A DNA stretch of 64,000 nucleotides, from positions 544,001 through 608,000 of the forward strand of contig CAWFGO010000003.1 of the NCBI GenBank assembly GCA_963815455.1, written 5' to 3'. Every line of letters starts with the position of its first letter. The first letter of the stretch is position 1. The translations under genes were made by a program, and so were the position numbers. The notes beneath the pieces are model-generated. The model ran no database searches. It was given only the letters and a program-made list of their open reading frames with translations, and was not told the DNA's origin. Of the stretch, positions 16,899-63,944 are shown piece after piece. Origin of the DNA: an uncultured Verrucomicrobiae bacterium. GTDB lineage: Bacteria > Verrucomicrobiota > Verrucomicrobiia > Chthoniobacterales > UBA10450.

Positions 16899-16993
16899 AT
16901 GAACAACGTCGACATCCCGAGCGGAGTCGAGGGATCTCGGAAAAGTGCTTCAGGTGGCACAACGGGCTTCCTCGCCGCGTCGGAATTCCACGT

Positions 16994-20264: not shown

Positions 20265-20379
20265 GGCGCTGGGCCGACTGTAGCGGCGCTCTGTGAGCGT
20301 CGCAAACTTTGGGCCATCAATTGGCGACCCCGAAGGCTTTCGGGGCCGCTACAGCAGAGATTCGATTCGACAGCGTTAT

Positions 20380-20395
20380 ATGTTCGCGCGAACAT
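20380..20395. promoter_or_regulatory. Verrucomicrobia-type LexA (SOS) box
   Basis: Perfect palindrome ATGTTC-GCGC-GAACAT ending 5 nt before the ATG of a SplB-like gene. Confidence 0.75.
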
Positions 20396-20400
20396 TCTTC

Positions 20401-21561
20401 ATGACCGGGCGCAAGTTTGTTCCAATCGTTGTCGAACAGCCTCAAAGCCGCGCTCCTCTACACGGCCGGGGCGCGTCATGGAGCCCGGCCAACCGTTTCG
20501 AAAAGCTTCATGTCGATCTAACCGATGTCGATGTCGTTGATGTCGATCCCGATGATGAGGAACGACCGCGCCGCCACACCCAGTATTTCCGCGATGCTTC
20601 CAAATCGATTATCACGCGTAACAACAGTCCCGATGTCGGATTCGAGACGAGCCTGAATCCGTATCGTGGCTGCGAACACGGCTGCATTTATTGTTATGCC
20701 AGGCCAACCCATGAATATCTCGGCTTTTCAGCCGGCCTCGATTTCGAAAGTAAAATCATGGTCAAGACCGATGCGCCGGAATTATTGTGCGCGGAAATGG
20801 AATCGCCGCGCTGGAAACCGCAAACGCTGGTAATGAGCGGCGTGACCGATCCGTATCAGCCGATCGAAAAGAAACTGCGGATCACGCGCGGTTGCCTCGA
20901 GGTGCTGGCGAAGTTTCGCAACCCGGTTGCGATCATCACCAAAAACCGCCTCGTGACACGCGATGTCGATCTTCTGCGGGAGCTGGCAAGTCATCATGCC
21001 GCGGCTGTGAATATTTCGATCACATCACTCGATCCGAAATTGCAACGGATTCTGGAACCGCGCACTTCGTCGCCCGAAGCGCGCCTCAACGCCATCCGAC
21101 AGCTTCGTGCAGCGGGAATTCCAGTTGGGGTCATGACTGCGCCGATCATTCCCGGGCTGACCGATCACGAGGTGCCGAAAATTCTCGAAGCAGCGGCCAA
21201 AGCAGGCGCGCAATTCGCCGGTTACACGATTGTGCGTTTGCCGTGGGCGGTGGCACCGCTGTTCGAGCATTGGCTGGAAGAACACTTTCCCGATCGAAAA
21301 GAGAAGGTGCTCGGGCGAATCCGAGAACTGCGCGGGAACGGCAAACTGAACAATTCGCAATGGCACACTCGCATGAGTGGCGAAGGAGCTTTTGCAGAGC
21401 AAATCGCTTCGTTGTTTGCGGTGGGTTGTCATCGTGCAGGGATCGGTGCACGACCGAAACTCTCGGCAACTGCGTTTCGAAGATCGACAACCCAAATTGA
21501 GCTGTCATTCCGAGCGAAGACAAGCGCAGTCGAGGAACCCCGCGGCATTCCTTCTCGCTAG
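20401..21561 (+). CDS. PA0069/SplB-like radical SAM DNA-repair protein
   Basis: SLNPYRGCEHGCIYCYARP (CxxxCxxC), TDPYQPIE; C-terminus runs into a REP. Confidence 0.9.
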   Translation: MTGRKFVPIVVEQPQSRAPLHGRGASWSPANRFEKLHVDLTDVDVVDVDPDDEERPRRHTQYFRDASKSIITRNNSPDVGFETSLNPYRGCEHGCIYCYARPTHEYLGFSAGLDFESKIMVKTDAPELLCAEMESPRWKPQTLVMSGVTDPYQPIEKKLRITRGCLEVLAKFRNPVAIITKNRLVTRDVDLLRELASHHAAAVNISITSLDPKLQRILEPRTSSPEARLNAIRQLRAAGIPVGVMTAPIIPGLTDHEVPKILEAAAKAGAQFAGYTIVRLPWAVAPLFEHWLEEHFPDRKEKVLGRIRELRGNGKLNNSQWHTRMSGEGAFAEQIASLFAVGCHRAGIGARPKLSATAFRRSTTQIELSFRAKTSAVEEPRGIPSR

Positions 21562-34989: not shown

Positions 34990-35853
34990 ATGCGTCCGAT
35001 TTGGAAAGGCAGTATCAGCTTTGGGCTGGTTTACATCCCGGTGGCCGTTTACCCGGCTACGCGTGAGGAGAAAATTAGTTTCCGTCAACTTCGCTCCAGC
35101 GATCTGAGCCCGATCAAATACAAAAAGGTCGCGGAGGCCGATTCGAAAGAAGTCTCGGCCGATCAGATCGTCAAAGGTTTCGAGTACGAGCGGGGCCGCT
35201 ACGTAGTGATGAAGGACGAAGACTTCGAGAAAGTCCGGATCGAATCGACCCACTCCATCGACATCACCGACTTCGTCGAGGTCGAGCAGGTCGATCCGAA
35301 GTTCTTCTACAAACCGTATTTCCTCGAGCCGCAGAAAGGCGGCGAGAAAGCCTACACCGTCTTGCACAAGGCGCTCAGCGGCACGGGCAAGATCGGCGTG
35401 GCCAAGGTCGTGATCAGCAATCGCGAGCATCTGGCGGCGGTGAAGCCGGACGGACTGTTTCTGATCCTGGAGCTGATGCATTTCGCCAGCGAGATCATGA
35501 GCACGGAGATTTTGAAAAATGGCGCAGCCACGGCCGTGACCGACAAGGAATTGAAAATGGCGCAGGCGCTCATCGAGACCATGACCGTCCAGTGGACCCC
35601 GGAAAAATACCGCGACGAATATCGGACGGCGCTGATGGAAATCATCGAGCAGAAAGCGCAGAACAAACAGATCGCCGCCAAAGCCCCCGCCCCGCCCACG
35701 CCCACGAACGTTGTCGATCTTGTCAAAGTCCTGCAGGACAGCCTCAACCGGAGCCAATCGCTCAAGCAAAAGCGCAGCCCCGCTCGCTCGAATGGCCGCC
35801 GCTCCACCAGCGCGCTGATCAAGCAAAAGCGACGTGCCGGCGCCCTGGGCTGA
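34990..35853 (+). CDS. ku: NHEJ DNA end-binding protein Ku
   Basis: MRPIWKGSISFGLVYIPV, IVKGFEYE, KPYFLEP, NVVDL, basic tail. Confidence 0.95.
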   Translation: MRPIWKGSISFGLVYIPVAVYPATREEKISFRQLRSSDLSPIKYKKVAEADSKEVSADQIVKGFEYERGRYVVMKDEDFEKVRIESTHSIDITDFVEVEQVDPKFFYKPYFLEPQKGGEKAYTVLHKALSGTGKIGVAKVVISNREHLAAVKPDGLFLILELMHFASEIMSTEILKNGAATAVTDKELKMAQALIETMTVQWTPEKYRDEYRTALMEIIEQKAQNKQIAAKAPAPPTPTNVVDLVKVLQDSLNRSQSLKQKRSPARSNGRRSTSALIKQKRRAGALG

Positions 35854-35855
35854 TC

Positions 35856-35914
35856 GGATTAGGCGAACAAATGTTCGCTTTTAATTACGAACGTTCGTCT
35901 ACTTCTCGTTAGGT
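35856..35914 (+). other. Array leader, putative attI-like site ending in GTTAGGT
   Basis: GTTRRRY core at 35908; similar to 63089-63156. Confidence 0.45.
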
Positions 35915-35919
35915 CTTGA

Positions 35920-36342
35920 ATGCCCTCGTTTTTGCGCTTCCAGACAAAGTTGCCTGACCGGGATTCCGGCAAACCGACCGGTATCTTCGTAGTCGCCCAC
36001 GAGCTCCGCGACAGTGATCGGGTCTCGCGGGAAGAGGAAGAGTGGCTCAGGAGTTGCCTCGCTTGGTTCAAAATGCATTTGAAAGTGCCACGCTGTTTGC
36101 GAGATCCAGCAAACCGCCGCGCGATCTCCTGGTTCAAGGGAGACAACCGCAACGCGATTTCGCGCATCTGGGATCTCGTCGCCTTTCTAAAAGATTATGG
36201 CATCTTCATCGACATAGTGCGCACACGCGACCCTGGGATCATTATTTACGAAGATGGCTATCAGGTCGTGGCGAAGCCGCGCCGAAAGAGACCTAACCAA
36301 ACGATGCAGCCAACCACTGGACGGCGTACGGCCTCGCGTTAA
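35920..36342 (+). CDS. Gene cassette 1: hypothetical protein
   Basis: ATG 5 nt after the GTTAGGT core; stop lies inside attC1. Confidence 0.75.
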   Translation: MPSFLRFQTKLPDRDSGKPTGIFVVAHELRDSDRVSREEEEWLRSCLAWFKMHLKVPRCLRDPANRRAISWFKGDNRNAISRIWDLVAFLKDYGIFIDIVRTRDPGIIIYEDGYQVVAKPRRKRPNQTMQPTTGRRTASR

Positions 36343-36414
36343 ATTTATGAAAGCACCTCCCTTGCAGGCCACACGCGCTCTCGCCAGCGGTGGCTGATCT
36401 TGTTCTCGTTAGAC
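36291..36414 (+). mobile_element. attC site 1 (124 bp)
   Basis: R'' ACCTAAC ... R' GTTAGAC; inner complementarity CAGCCA/TGGCTG and CTGG/CCAG. Confidence 0.85.
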
Positions 36415-36421
36415 CTAAAGC

Positions 36422-36763
36422 GTGTCATCAATCCCCTTTGCTCTTTGTGCAGCGATGTTCTGTCTTGCACTAACAAGCTGCGAGAGGAGATCAGCGACCC
36501 CCGAGGATTTCCGCCGCGGTGATGAGATCGTTGCGGCGCTTCAGAAGTATCGTGCTGACCATGGCCACTATCCTGACACACTAGGCCCATTGGCACCTGA
36601 CTATATTCGCGAGATCAAAGACCCGGATTATGGCGAACGGCGATGGGATTACATCCATTATTGCGAGAAAGATACCTACGCTCTTTTCATGTGGACCTCG
36701 ACGAAGGCGGGCTGCGGCTACAACGTACCCGATTCCAAATGGACGCGGATCGACAATTCTTGA
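36422..36763 (+). CDS. Gene cassette 2: lipoprotein with pseudopilin GspG-like segment
   Basis: Lipobox LTSC; EIVAALQKYRADHGHYPDTL..LAPDYI. Confidence 0.65.
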   Translation: MSSIPFALCAAMFCLALTSCERRSATPEDFRRGDEIVAALQKYRADHGHYPDTLGPLAPDYIREIKDPDYGERRWDYIHYCEKDTYALFMWTSTKAGCGYNVPDSKWTRIDNS

Positions 36764-36779
36764 TGAAGCGACGCAACAG

Positions 36780-36903
36780 GTCTAACCAGACGGTCGAGCG
36801 AACGGCGGCTGGCCTTGTGTTCGACACTTTGAGTAGCTAGTATCTTTCTCATGCAATCTACGCGCCCTCTCCGCCGCCGTCGCTCATCTTGTTCTCGTTA
36901 GGC
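36780..36903 (+). mobile_element. attC site 2 (124 bp)
   Basis: R'' GTCTAAC ... R' GTTAGGC; inner GAGCGAACGGCGGC pairs with GCCGCCGTCGCTC. Confidence 0.85.
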
Positions 36904-36919
36904 CGACAGCGAAAATGCA

Positions 36920-37303
36920 ATGAAACGCACATGGACAATCATCGGCGTGAGTGACGTTCCGGGGAGCTTCAAATGGTACCAGTCGCTCTTCGGCCAGCCC
37001 CAGACGCAGCCGGGCCACGACTACTTTGGTCAGATCCTGGATACGGATGGAACCGTTTTGCTCTGTCTCCACCAGTGGGGCGCGCACGAGCATCCCTCCT
37101 TGATGAGTCCGAGCCAGGCGCCACCTGGCAACGGGCTCCTCTTGTTCTTCCGCGTCGACGACTACGACAAGGCCCTGAACAGGGCACGCGCTTTCGTCGC
37201 CCGATTCGAGGAGGAGCCCCACGTGAACCCGAACACTCGAACAAGGGAGTTCTCACTCCGGGATCCGGACGGATACTACGTCACGATCAGCGCTGATCGT
37301 TAG
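36920..37303 (+). CDS. Cassette 3a: VOC/glyoxalase family protein
   Basis: IGVSDVPGSFKWY...REFSLRDPDGY. Confidence 0.85.
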   Translation: MKRTWTIIGVSDVPGSFKWYQSLFGQPQTQPGHDYFGQILDTDGTVLLCLHQWGAHEHPSLMSPSQAPPGNGLLLFFRVDDYDKALNRARAFVARFEEEPHVNPNTRTREFSLRDPDGYYVTISADR

Positions 37304-37344
37304 GCTTATGCAGTGCAGCGTCAGAATCAACTCAACATAACCAA

Positions 37345-37782
37345 ATGCCCACAAAACCAATTCCTGACGGATTCCACGCCGTTACTCCCTATCTATTCGC
37401 CCAAGGTGCTTCGCGGTTGATTGAGTTCATCTCCGCGGCATTCCACGGCGAGGTGATCTTCCGACAAACCCGGCCAGATGGCGCAATCATGCACGCCACA
37501 ATGCGAATCGGAGACTCGATGCTCATGCTGGCCGACCCAACCCCACAGTTTGGACCGATGCCCGCCTCGATCTATCTGTACGTGCACGACTCCGACACCG
37601 TTTATCATTCCGCGCTCAAGGCAGGCGGAGTTTCTGTTTTTCCCATCATGACGTTGCCTTCGGGTGAACGGTATGGCGGCGTCAAAGATCCCTGCGGCAA
37701 CATTTGGTGGGTTGCCACCCACGTCGAGGATGTTCCTCTCGACGAGCAGGAACGACGCTGGAAAGAATTCAAAATGCCATGA
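37345..37782 (+). CDS. Cassette 3b: VOC (PhnB-like) protein
   Basis: PDGFHAVTPYL, IMHATMRIGDS, GERYGGVKDPCGNIWW. Confidence 0.88.
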   Translation: MPTKPIPDGFHAVTPYLFAQGASRLIEFISAAFHGEVIFRQTRPDGAIMHATMRIGDSMLMLADPTPQFGPMPASIYLYVHDSDTVYHSALKAGGVSVFPIMTLPSGERYGGVKDPCGNIWWVATHVEDVPLDEQERRWKEFKMP

Positions 37783-37802
37783 GTCAAGCGAATCTGAACC
37801 CG

Positions 37803-37941
37803 GCCTAACCATTCGATACAGCCAACCGCTGGCCGCTGTACTGAGAAGGTTGAGGGTTGAGAGATGATAGTTGAGAGTAAAGCAAAGCTCGCCATACAAC
37901 TCCGGCGTGTCTGCCACGACACCCTGCCGCAGCTCATCTCT
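37803..37941 (+). mobile_element. Degenerate attC site 3 (R' missing)
   Basis: R'' GCCTAAC plus CAGCCAACCGCTGG; ends at GCAGCTCATCTCT with no GTTRRRY. Confidence 0.6.
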
Positions 37942-38036
37942 GAGCGCAGCAAGGAAGGTAGTGAGCTTCGCCATCTGCTTATAAAGGGCAGAGTCGACGA
38001 ACAGGTCGGGTTCGGCTAAGAAATAAGGCCGCTGAA

Positions 38037-61752: not shown

Positions 61753-62973
61753 ATGCCGGACGATAAACCAGAGGAACGACGGCACCCGCGACAAAAAGCG
61801 ATCAGCCCGCAACTGCGCCGTTTTCTAGGGCCGGCCCGCTCCGTTCACGATCAGCCGCCAACAAAGCCCAAGCCCGAACCGGCTCCGCCCCCGGAACGCG
61901 AGACAGACGAACCCAGCCCGGCTCCGCCCGAGTTCGAAGAAAAGATCCAATCGCCGAGCCCGGAGTTCGCCGACGAAAACGTAGCCGAATCCGAACCCGA
62001 GTCCGAGCCCCAGCGGCGGCCCACCGGGACTGGAGTTGCCCTGGCTCCGGCCCGGGAACTGTCGCGCAAGATCGAGATGCAAACCGTTTTCCTCATCATC
62101 GGAGGTCTGTTCCTCCTGGCCGGCATGTTCTACGTCGGCAAGAAATTCGAATACTGGAAGTACCTCATCACCTCCCGGAACAAACCGCAGTTGTCCAGCA
62201 TCGTGCCCGACAAATTCCAGGGCCTGACCGCCGATGAACTGGTCGAGCAAGCGCTCGCCGCTCAGCGCCTCGGCAACTGGCAGGAAGCAGCCGAACGATT
62301 CTTCGCCGCCAAACGCAAGAACACTGCCTACCGCGGTCTCCTGTTTCGCGTCGGCAAACTTCATTACGACCACGGCGAGTTCGACACCGCGGACAAGTTG
62401 TTTGAAAAATCCGTCGCCTTTGGCGAGAACGTCGATACCGCAAGTTTTCTGCGCGGGCTGATCGCCGTGGGCCGCAGCAACTTCGCCGCCGCCGAACGTT
62501 TCTTCGAGGCCGCGGCCAACGCCGAGCCATTAATGCCGGCTTATCCTTACTATTGGGCGGAAGCGATCCGGCGCGATCACCAGCCGCTGGAAGCAATCCC
62601 GGTCTACGAGCGGGCGTTACGCCGCTTCGATACCGACCAGGAACGGACCATATGCAATTTCAAGATTCGCATGGCCATGATCGAAGCCGGCCAGACCGCG
62701 CCGCTCAGTGTTGAGATCGACGCCAAACAACAAGCCGGCCCGTTACCGGTGGACTGGCTCATGACCGCCGCCGCGATTCATATCCGCGAGGGAAACATTG
62801 CCGAAGCGTTACCCCTCATCGAAAAAGCGCGTAACACCGACCGGGCCAATTTGTACAGCCTGTTCGCCTCATGCACCGGCGACATGTTCTTCGCCGCCGC
62901 CAGCGTAAGAAATCCCGAAATCGCCCAAGCCTGCCAAATCCAGACGCCCCCCACCGGATCGCCCCCGCGCTAA
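61753..62973 (+). CDS. Membrane-anchored TPR protein with Pro/Glu-rich N-terminus
   Basis: Low-complexity N-terminus, TM VFLIIGGLFLLAGMFYV, TPR-like helices. Confidence 0.7.
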   Translation: MPDDKPEERRHPRQKAISPQLRRFLGPARSVHDQPPTKPKPEPAPPPERETDEPSPAPPEFEEKIQSPSPEFADENVAESEPESEPQRRPTGTGVALAPARELSRKIEMQTVFLIIGGLFLLAGMFYVGKKFEYWKYLITSRNKPQLSSIVPDKFQGLTADELVEQALAAQRLGNWQEAAERFFAAKRKNTAYRGLLFRVGKLHYDHGEFDTADKLFEKSVAFGENVDTASFLRGLIAVGRSNFAAAERFFEAAANAEPLMPAYPYYWAEAIRRDHQPLEAIPVYERALRRFDTDQERTICNFKIRMAMIEAGQTAPLSVEIDAKQQAGPLPVDWLMTAAAIHIREGNIAEALPLIEKARNTDRANLYSLFASCTGDMFFAAASVRNPEIAQACQIQTPPTGSPPR

Positions 62974-63088
62974 GCGCAAAGGCAATCACGAGCTGAATCT
63001 AACAGTTTTGAATTGCACAGGAACGGACCCGGCTGGCAAACTGCCGGACATGTTCGACAATCCCACCGTCCCCCGCCAAGAGGCCACT

Positions 63089-63156
63089 GGATTAGGCCGA
63101 ATCATTCCCCTTTTCCCACGAAATTGCCGAATAATTCGGCCCACTCCTCGTTAGAC
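63089..63156 (+). other. Array leader, putative attI-like site ending in GTTAGAC
   Basis: Similar to 35856-35914. Confidence 0.45.
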
Positions 63157-63158
63157 CT

Positions 63159-63848
63159 ATGCGCCACGCGTGCATCATTTGCTTCACGGCCTTGGCAACA
63201 TTGGTGCATGCCGAAGACATCAAGCTGCTTAACGGCACGCTTCTCAAGGACGCCAAGATCACGAGCTATGACGCGATCGGCGTCACGATCACTCACTCGG
63301 CGGGCATTGCTCGTGTTCCATTCGATGAGCTTCCCGCCGAACTGCGTCAGAAATTCACCTACGACCCAGAGAAGGCACACGCGCAAGCAGACGCAGAAGC
63401 GCGCGCTATTGCGCAGCGCGCGCAGGAACAACAGTCACTGCAAAACAACGCGGCGCACGAAGCAGCAGAGGCGCAATTAGCGCAGGAGTTGGATAAGGTC
63501 GCTGTGACCATCACAGGCAAAGTTCTGTCAGTTGCACCCGACGGCCTTCTACTTAGTCATGTTTCGGTCAAGGTTCCAGCGCTGAAAGATGTTGTAGTTT
63601 GGCGCAACCCACTGGATGGCTCCCCACGCTACGCGCGGGTTCCCGGCTTCGACACAATTCGCCCGGATGAGCCGATCTTTATTTATGGCGCTCACGGTTT
63701 GGTCGATGGAGACATTTATTCCGCAGTCGTTTACCCAGCGCCGCACTACTCATACGCTGCAGCGTCAGGCGCAGCGAAGACGGTTCGGGCGTTTGCGGCG
63801 TCAAAACAACTTTGCAGGGAACTGCTTCAGAATGAAGATGCCAAATAG
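63159..63848 (+). CDS. Gene cassette: exported hypothetical protein
   Basis: ATG 2 nt after the GTTAGAC core; signal peptide; stop abuts attC. Confidence 0.75.
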   Translation: MRHACIICFTALATLVHAEDIKLLNGTLLKDAKITSYDAIGVTITHSAGIARVPFDELPAELRQKFTYDPEKAHAQADAEARAIAQRAQEQQSLQNNAAHEAAEAQLAQELDKVAVTITGKVLSVAPDGLLLSHVSVKVPALKDVVVWRNPLDGSPRYARVPGFDTIRPDEPIFIYGAHGLVDGDIYSAVVYPAPHYSYAAASGAAKTVRAFAASKQLCRELLQNEDAK

Positions 63849-63944
63849 GTCTAACCAGACGATGAAGCCAATTTGCCCCCTGCAAGAAAACCTCAGTGAT
63901 TTTGCCACGGCGCCCTCGCCTGGCTTATCTTTTTCTCGTTAGAT
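63849..63944 (+). mobile_element. attC site (96 bp)
   Basis: R'' GTCTAAC-CAGACGATGAAGCCA ... TGGCTTATCTTTTTCTC-GTTAGAT R'. Confidence 0.85.

Follow-up and report, generated by a model that had tools for sequence, protein, structure and literature searches.

Cassette arrays headed by attI sites without a functional integrase gene in an uncultured Verrucomicrobiae bacterium

Two arrays of integron cassettes lie in a 64,000-nucleotide stretch of DNA from an uncultured Verrucomicrobiae bacterium (the window, G000:C3:544001-608000, where G000 is the source genome). The arrays begin with similar leaders, which the first-pass annotation took for candidate attI-like docking sites served by a distant integrase. 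We asked what these leaders are, how they came to stand apart from an integrase gene, and whether they could receive cassettes in trans.

Identity of the two leaders

The relevant features of the window are as follows.

34990..35853, + strand: Ku gene (Pfam Ku, E 1e-46), host flank; stop codon 2 nt before leader 1
35856..35914, + strand: leader 1, solo attI 1 of the 49-nt subtype; whole-genome profile scan 53.2 bits, E 6.9e-14; 44/52 nt identity to the attI of intact intI-B; upstream box 35859-35864, two quasi-palindromes, L-like inverted box 35897-35903, R box 35908-35914
35909..36408, + strand: array 1 cassette 1, ORF without a Pfam family; attC 36290-36414
36409..36897, + strand: array 1 cassette 2, ORF without a Pfam family; attC 36779-36903
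36898..37299, + strand: array 1 cassette 3, glyoxalase/VOC protein; attC lost
37300..37945, + strand: array 1 cassette 4, glyoxalase/VOC protein; attC from 37802, cut before its R' box; end of array
61753..62973, + strand: TPR-repeat gene (Pfam TPR), host flank of leader 2
62979..63051, - strand: decayed, frame-shifted 5' stub of a divergent intI; KLLD motif 62997-63008, in the register of intact integrons
63089..63156, + strand: leader 2, solo attI 2 of the 58-nt subtype; whole-genome profile scan 44 bits, E 5.1e-11; 55/61 nt identity to the intI-linked attI of G013; upstream box 63092-63097, L-like box 63139-63145, R box 63150-63156
63151..63938, + strand: array 2 cassette 1; attC 63848-63944

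Array 1 comprises four cassettes with two whole attC sites. Array 2 has three attC sites and runs beyond the window, where two further attC are followed by a last cassette that lacks one. Both arrays fit the definition of a CALIN, with at least two attC and no functional intI nearby (leader 2 has a short stub only). Neither leader has the adjacent intI of a complete integron: the nearest match to an IntI profile lies ~178 kb from leader 2 and ~205 kb from leader 1, and the intact genes are on contig C1. The earlier statement that no intI stands beside the leaders held for leader 1, which has no IntI remnant, and failed for leader 2, which adjoins the decayed stub.

As first reported, GGATTAGGC begins at 35856 and at 63089 and is common to both leaders; by itself it is not diagnostic, as the genome holds 11 copies, two of which are the leaders. 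Inspection of the sequence also bore out that the inner palindrome of each leader stops 9 nt short of GTT, and 12 of the last 14 bases are indeed common. The TTTT run to which attention had been drawn is unconserved in the alignment of intI-adjacent attI sites. The crossover G of GTTAG is 35908 in leader 1 (G/TT at 35908/35909) and 63150 in leader 2; at both, an R box of the form GTTRRRY carries the cassette junction at G/TT. The inverse core of the first cassette is the exact complement of the R box at leader 1 and at leader 2, and this complementarity of the bases after G/TT is a mark of cassette insertion at both sites.

We built an attI profile from 25 array-head sites adjacent to intI (3 in this genome, 22 in relatives), using no solo site. 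Both leaders matched it strongly in the genome scan. Right ends of attC sites scored at most 5.4 bits on the profile, versus 51 and 43 for leaders 1 and 2, and of the genome's other GTTAG sites, 2151 in number, a single one came to 8 bits, and it is itself another attI head. The leaders are therefore almost certainly attI sites, as the match to intI-adjacent sites bears out for the docking sites first proposed. Leader 1 resembles attI-B and leader 2 resembles the G013 attI, but leader 2 is only 56-59% identical to attI-A and attI-B; the two are thus attI sites of different subtypes and of separate origin, not copies of one another.

In the attI sites of this bacterial family a TTAGRC-type box stands upstream, followed by one or two quasi-palindromes, then by an inverted L-like box and, last, by the R box. 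The single conserved upstream box is in R orientation and stands at discrete distances from the crossover. The inverted, degenerate L-like box is conserved in the alignment, 4-5 nt 5' of the R box, its exact register being unfixed by sequence alone.

Could the leaders instead descend from attC by decay, or from mini-cassettes by collapse, so that a former R' survives as the upstream box and a former inverse core as the L-like box? The last ~10 nt are common to attI and attC, and the upstream and L-like boxes are inverted and co-vary (8/10 pairs with two-sided changes, 0/500 shuffles, among kin that are not independent). Yet the same motif occupies the attI position beside 25 intI genes and is conserved across genera, and attC ends score poorly on the attI profile. 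This reading is largely refuted by position, and we consider it highly improbable; the two site types may nevertheless be linked in evolution. The first-pass view that neither leader is an attC was upheld: the real attC sites of the genome are hairpins of ~96-127 nt that open with an inverse core, no inverse core was found 5' of the leaders, and the attC detector found neither of them. In the family, attC sites measure ~123 nt, R' is preceded by an 8-nt spacer, and the right end of the site is common to 31/32 genomes searched.

A second alternative makes the palindromes a promoter or repressor-binding module heading arrays, for example a LexA box, with recombination secondary. Leader 1 does contain a GAAC-N4-GTTC palindrome resembling Gram-positive SOS boxes, and the internal symmetry of attI sites is strong (median folding z -4.8 against mononucleotide shuffles). 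The lexA promoter of this genome, however, has the reverse arrangement, which is absent from the leaders, the palindromes vary in sequence and length between subtypes, and homology stops at the G/TT crossover. Nor was a sigma-70-like promoter (Pc) found, in a scan that may not suit the lineage. We judge a regulatory module to be very unlikely. LexA-box identity was rejected for the leaders, as the lexA-type box is missing from them and the exact box occurs in 1/24 intI-linked upstream regions. The genome has five exact TGTTC-N4-GAACA palindromes, the arrangement found upstream of lexA; the one that lies elsewhere in the window, at 20381-20394, is likely an SOS box near the start of ORF 20293-21561. 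The attI symmetry would fit both paired binding sites and a cruciform; predicted folding has no strand bias (top strand 44, bottom strand 53 of 124 sites), so that a single-strand hairpin was set aside, and helical phasing of the box distances is moderate (0.66).

Other features of the window were also recorded. An Rfam search returned tRNAs only. REP-like palindromic repeats are dispersed between genes (at 16909, 25230, 44473 and 53658), with other short families. Homologues of array 1 cassette 3 occur in 17/60 family genomes searched. In both genus g13 genomes, cassettes lie 1-5 kb downstream of Ku (L434 in G013:C6 and L435 in G159:C2); the G013 Ku locus holds a homologue of cassette 3 (84% DNA) with no attI detected, by chance or through a shared hotspot.

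attI sites in the genome and its relatives

The genome scan revealed 13 attI-type heads, of which 11 scored at least 12 bits, one 8.2 bits and one 4.3 bits, the last being 91-94% like another head over ~40 nt. Every one of the 11 distinct sites of at least 12 bits heads a cassette. Two heads have an intact intI, two a broken one and nine none, in agreement with the earlier claim of several chromosomal docking sites. One more array, without attI, abuts an intI 5' fragment. Contig C1 carries two full-length intI genes that pass the family cut-off; a split copy (C3:784758-785697) and two fragments make up the rest. The intI-A gene is directed away from its array and intI-B into its array; among named organisms, the closest IntI (68-75%) belong to Chthoniobacterales, Ca. 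Udaeobacter and unclassified Verrucomicrobia.

The head at C2+421869 is 95% identical to attI-B over 85 nt, with different cassettes. At G000:C2:421700-421875 this solo copy of attI-B follows a 14-codon piece resembling the 5' end of intI-A on the opposite strand, forming an A/B chimera. The only recent cassette sharing was among intI-bearing arrays, where array B has 537 nt in common at 100% with the array of the split intI. We also observed a 1.54-kb element with an IS110-like transposase (judged from sequence) inside attC sites at five places, at 96-100% identity:

G000:C1:1710983-1712522; C1:1489071-1490607; C3:790209-791742; C2:711010-712546; C6:21561-23064: copies of the 1.54-kb IS110-like element

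Sequence like the end of this element also interrupts the terminal attC of two solo arrays. Contig C6 (G000:C6:20400-23064) resembles the end of the C3+785765 array (C3:790200-793000) at 96-99%, possibly through an assembly overlap or strain variant.

Among the matches listed (150 of 234), the profile matched in 26/28 relative genomes, each of which has 0-2 intI. In the loci examined, 104/132 matches had no IntI match within 700 nt upstream (two were reverse-strand echoes). We then set 105 arrays in 15 relatives by attC pattern alone, among the matches listed (3 more existed) and with some contig-end arrays left out. Fourteen of the 105 were intI-linked, all with attI. Ninety-one had no intI, and removal of 4 cut by a contig end left 87. 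A profile match was present within ~3.8 kb upstream on the same strand in 52 of these 87; another 4, judged by eye, had a different attI subtype (total 56), and 31 had none. For integrase-less arrays with at least two attC the figure was 28/45, or 31/45 with the subtypes judged by eye. The profile scan of the genome and its relatives that had been proposed, made here from intI-adjacent sites, found matches that head attC arrays and resemble the site beside intI; neither a lack of enrichment before other arrays nor signs of a decayed attC or generic repeat came to light.

The distance between upstream box and crossover was 27-31 nt in 22 of 124 sites, 46-53 nt in 86 and 57-60 nt in 16; the box was indistinct in 16/140 distinct attI sites. 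Exact complementarity of the first-cassette inverse core to the R box was found at 55/71 solo and 15/19 linked scorable sites. The gene upstream of attI was co-oriented at 92/118 sites and divergent at 26/118, a count made without a control. One attI family serves both integron layouts, with attI at the 5' end of intI in 18/25 and at the 3' end in 7/25:

L002, L003, L058, L061, L065, L070, L076: integrons with attI at the 3' end of intI

Whole attI sites were also seen inside cassette regions (L117/L118 at G000's relative G018:C2:1104000-1120000, G009:C2:250726 and G027:C2:596365); G018 has five attI sites in 15 kb, including two near-identical pairs with different cargo. Unpublished genomes entered some tallies only, and no main claim depends on them.

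Loss of intI and turnover of cassettes

The KLLD codons of the stub beside leader 2 lie 141 nt from the crossover, compared with 131-144 nt in 12/14 intI-linked sites; this pattern arose at 16/20000 random positions. As leader 2 retains a decayed 5' stub of intI, it is a relic of intI deletion: leader 2 at least remains from a site that has lost its intI and is not a dock born without an integrase. Loci of its subtype form a decay series, with intI whole in 7, truncated in 5, reduced to a stub in 3 and absent in 14 of 29, and blastx detected an IntI remnant at 21/120 non-linked sites (a few being linked sites cut by the locus edge). Taken together, the stub, the decay series and the remnants establish intI erosion as one route to a solo attI.

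Leader 1 has a different setting. Ku is common to close relatives up to a few bases past its stop, after which the sequences differ, indicating that leader 1 is a lineage-specific arrival. The position directly after Ku held no orthologous site in 29 relatives (including unpublished G003 and G008) or in the 29 closest Ku loci (two genomes overlap the former set), and no match ran through the attI among the 150 matches listed from 355 genomes (256 more matches existed). These loci also bear on the proposal that the arrays began by insertion at secondary genome sites (attG), the shared leader being a favoured host sequence. The attG target has a 3-nt GWT consensus and is a published route to small CALINs (available text of Loot et al., 10.1101/2022.09.11.507474). 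The leaders, however, are homologous to intI-linked attI over 50-60 nt, and sequence of this kind is missing after Ku in the 29 closest Ku loci. An attG origin is refuted for both window sites; it may hold for the 31 headless arrays.

Searches for sites orthologous to the other solo attI were likewise negative. For leader 2 none was found, matches covering the attI part only, and the pyrG-type solo site C3-85925 was not found in 180 relatives at E 1e-35. In an empty-site search of five close genomes, the carbonic anhydrase and TPR genes were not found with the queries used. A metagenome search for the junction pattern gave three unrelated matches attributable to chance, contigs from public sequencing runs (shares 0.05-0.06) came from other organisms with none bridging the junction, and phages and viral contigs gave no match.

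In G018, an 850-nt unit starting at an attC and ending at an attI is present twice, and would fit a circle closed by attI. The idea that every solo attI starts at a G/TT crossover within the upstream box found no support, since left boundaries range from ~49 to 240 nt and many sites keep bases 5' of the box.

One locus allowed solo attI sites to be compared between species. Eight species from two genera have the same attI behind an M48-peptidase gene; they share both flanks, and an IntI match is found on neither side (unpublished G072 was left out of this comparison). The site is empty in G071 and decayed in G083, where GTT is lost; it carries two cassettes in each of G011, G035 and G084, one in each of G089 and G077, and three or more in G078. 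The 11 cassettes in these six species had no DNA or tblastx match to one another in 15/15 pairs. An attI was absent from this position in the other 20 loci examined. Elsewhere in these genomes, intI is intact in G011, G078 and G071 and a fragment only in G035; none over the cut-off was found in G084, G089, G077 and G083, whose assemblies are incomplete (60-94% complete). This patchiness suggests that the helper may come and go.

Three more solo pairs across genera share 0.9-1.3 kb upstream and diverge at G/TTAG; two of them lie near nuoB and a SurA-like isomerase. The attI was clearly better kept than the preceding 50 nt in 2/4 pairs. The attI and attC have ~10 nt in common at the crossover, through which a deletion by slippage might look like excision, though not like insertion. 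Differential deletion through this microhomology could alter the first cassette, though it needs disjoint subsets of one long ancestral array. The M48 locus provides good comparative evidence for cassette capture in trans at a solo attI, which supports the distributed integron first inferred, and such capture very probably takes place somewhere in the bacterial family.

Status of the window sites and comparison with known systems

For the two window sites, the reading we prefer is that they are attI without a functional intI that are likely usable as docks, loaded in trans at G/TT; we put its probability at roughly 0.6. The observations behind it are the identity with intI-linked attI, the precise attI/cassette junctions, the two intact intI on another contig and the stub at leader 2. 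Whole integrons would have been gained or duplicated repeatedly in the family, and intI then eroded by deletion with retention of the 30-60 nt attI. The IntI of a remaining or passing integron would bind the R box, L-like box and upstream box, and carry out attC x attI recombination in trans. IntI-B, of the same subtype, would serve leader 1, and leader 2 would need cross-recognition by an integrase of another subtype. Similarity between IntI and attI correlates only modestly (Spearman 0.40 over pairs of 21, the pairs not being independent), so cross-recognition would be possible. As a guess, transcription running on from the host gene upstream (Ku, TPR) might express the cassettes. Counting against this reading are the 31/87 integrase-less arrays without attI and the M48-locus genomes in which intI over the cut-off was not found (four) or is a fragment only (G035).

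Several observations speak against current use, and they favour an alternative in which the leaders are true attI but inert relics, filled while intI was adjacent and without recombination since its deletion. The subtype of leader 2 has no cognate intI in this genome, both window arrays end in damaged cassettes, and no near-identical cassette is common to either window array and the intI arrays; the stub at leader 2 and the decayed solo attI of G083 point the same way. Weighing against inertness, leader 2 and G013 agree at 55/61 positions of the attI but at only 21/36 of the stub; in the two linked pairs whose attI agree at 51/61 positions or more, the latter figure is higher (26/36 and 30/36; few pairs). 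The turnover at the M48 site would, if there were no capture, need disjoint subsets of an ancestral array of at least 11 cassettes. We regard inert relics as unlikely, though far from implausible.

A broader proposal is held more tentatively, at less than even odds: that the integron of this family has come apart into an integrase that is rare and often transient and, under selection, a network of attI docks without integrase, 5-15 to a genome and placed behind housekeeping genes. These docks would be copied within genomes, partly as attI-closed circles, and still capture cassettes over species-level time, so that most CALINs here, both window sites included, would be working satellite integrons.

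CALINs, in which attC sites cluster with no integron-integrase (Cury et al. 2016, PMC4889954), outnumber complete integrons. The available text of that paper proposes intI loss, secondary-site insertion and rearrangement as their origins and discusses them as cassette donors; because attI is unknown for most integrons, and hence unsearchable outside the clinical classes, their origin and use remain open questions. Cassettes of CALINs can be mobilised in trans, according to the available parts of PMC9668308, PMC11389934 and 10.1101/2025.06.18.660453. A clade with recognisable attI allows CALINs to be sorted, and ~60% of the integrase-less arrays here keep one. If this is general, gene capture would be spread over many chromosomal sites with differing expression contexts, 'integrase-less' would not mean dead, and integron finders would miss empty or single-cassette docks. 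The open literature searched, subscription papers lying outside it, held no description of many receptive solo attI per genome or of integrons in this taxon.

Like the CALINs of the published definition, the arrays described here have at least two attC and no nearby intI, in genomes that often encode IntI elsewhere. That definition includes no attI, whereas 52/87 arrays here retain a recognisable one, and one locus gives signs of capture, which would make such arrays recipients too. By their sequence, the window sites would constitute a CALIN variant that retains a receptive attI. Their resemblance to attI1 of class 1 integrons, as presented in the available text of PMC12901181 and PMC4792948, extends to the R box GTTRRRY, crossover after G, an inverted L box and a length of ~60 nt; attI1 has further repeat boxes upstream (DR1/DR2), to which the one conserved upstream box seen here may correspond. 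Unlike attI1, they occur in many copies per genome away from intI, in three length classes and with long internal inverted symmetry, and within one family their place is 5' of intI (divergent) in some integrons and 3' in others.

As in SALIN formation or attG insertion, integrase acting in trans would place cassettes away from the integron, but the target here is a full attI homologue, which is reused. In the Delta-attI-type cassettes of mobile integrons (as described in the accessible text of PMC12901181), attI is likewise out of its usual place, within arrays, and still recombines there. Those are truncated attI replacing attC in clinical integrons, whereas here whole attI head chromosomal arrays; the attI copies within G018 arrays may be the nearer parallel. 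Finally, solo attI recall hitcher elements such as MITEs, non-autonomous remnants that depend on a helper after loss of the enzyme gene (PMC11389934, in the part available), except that for solo attI what was observed is the turnover of cargo.
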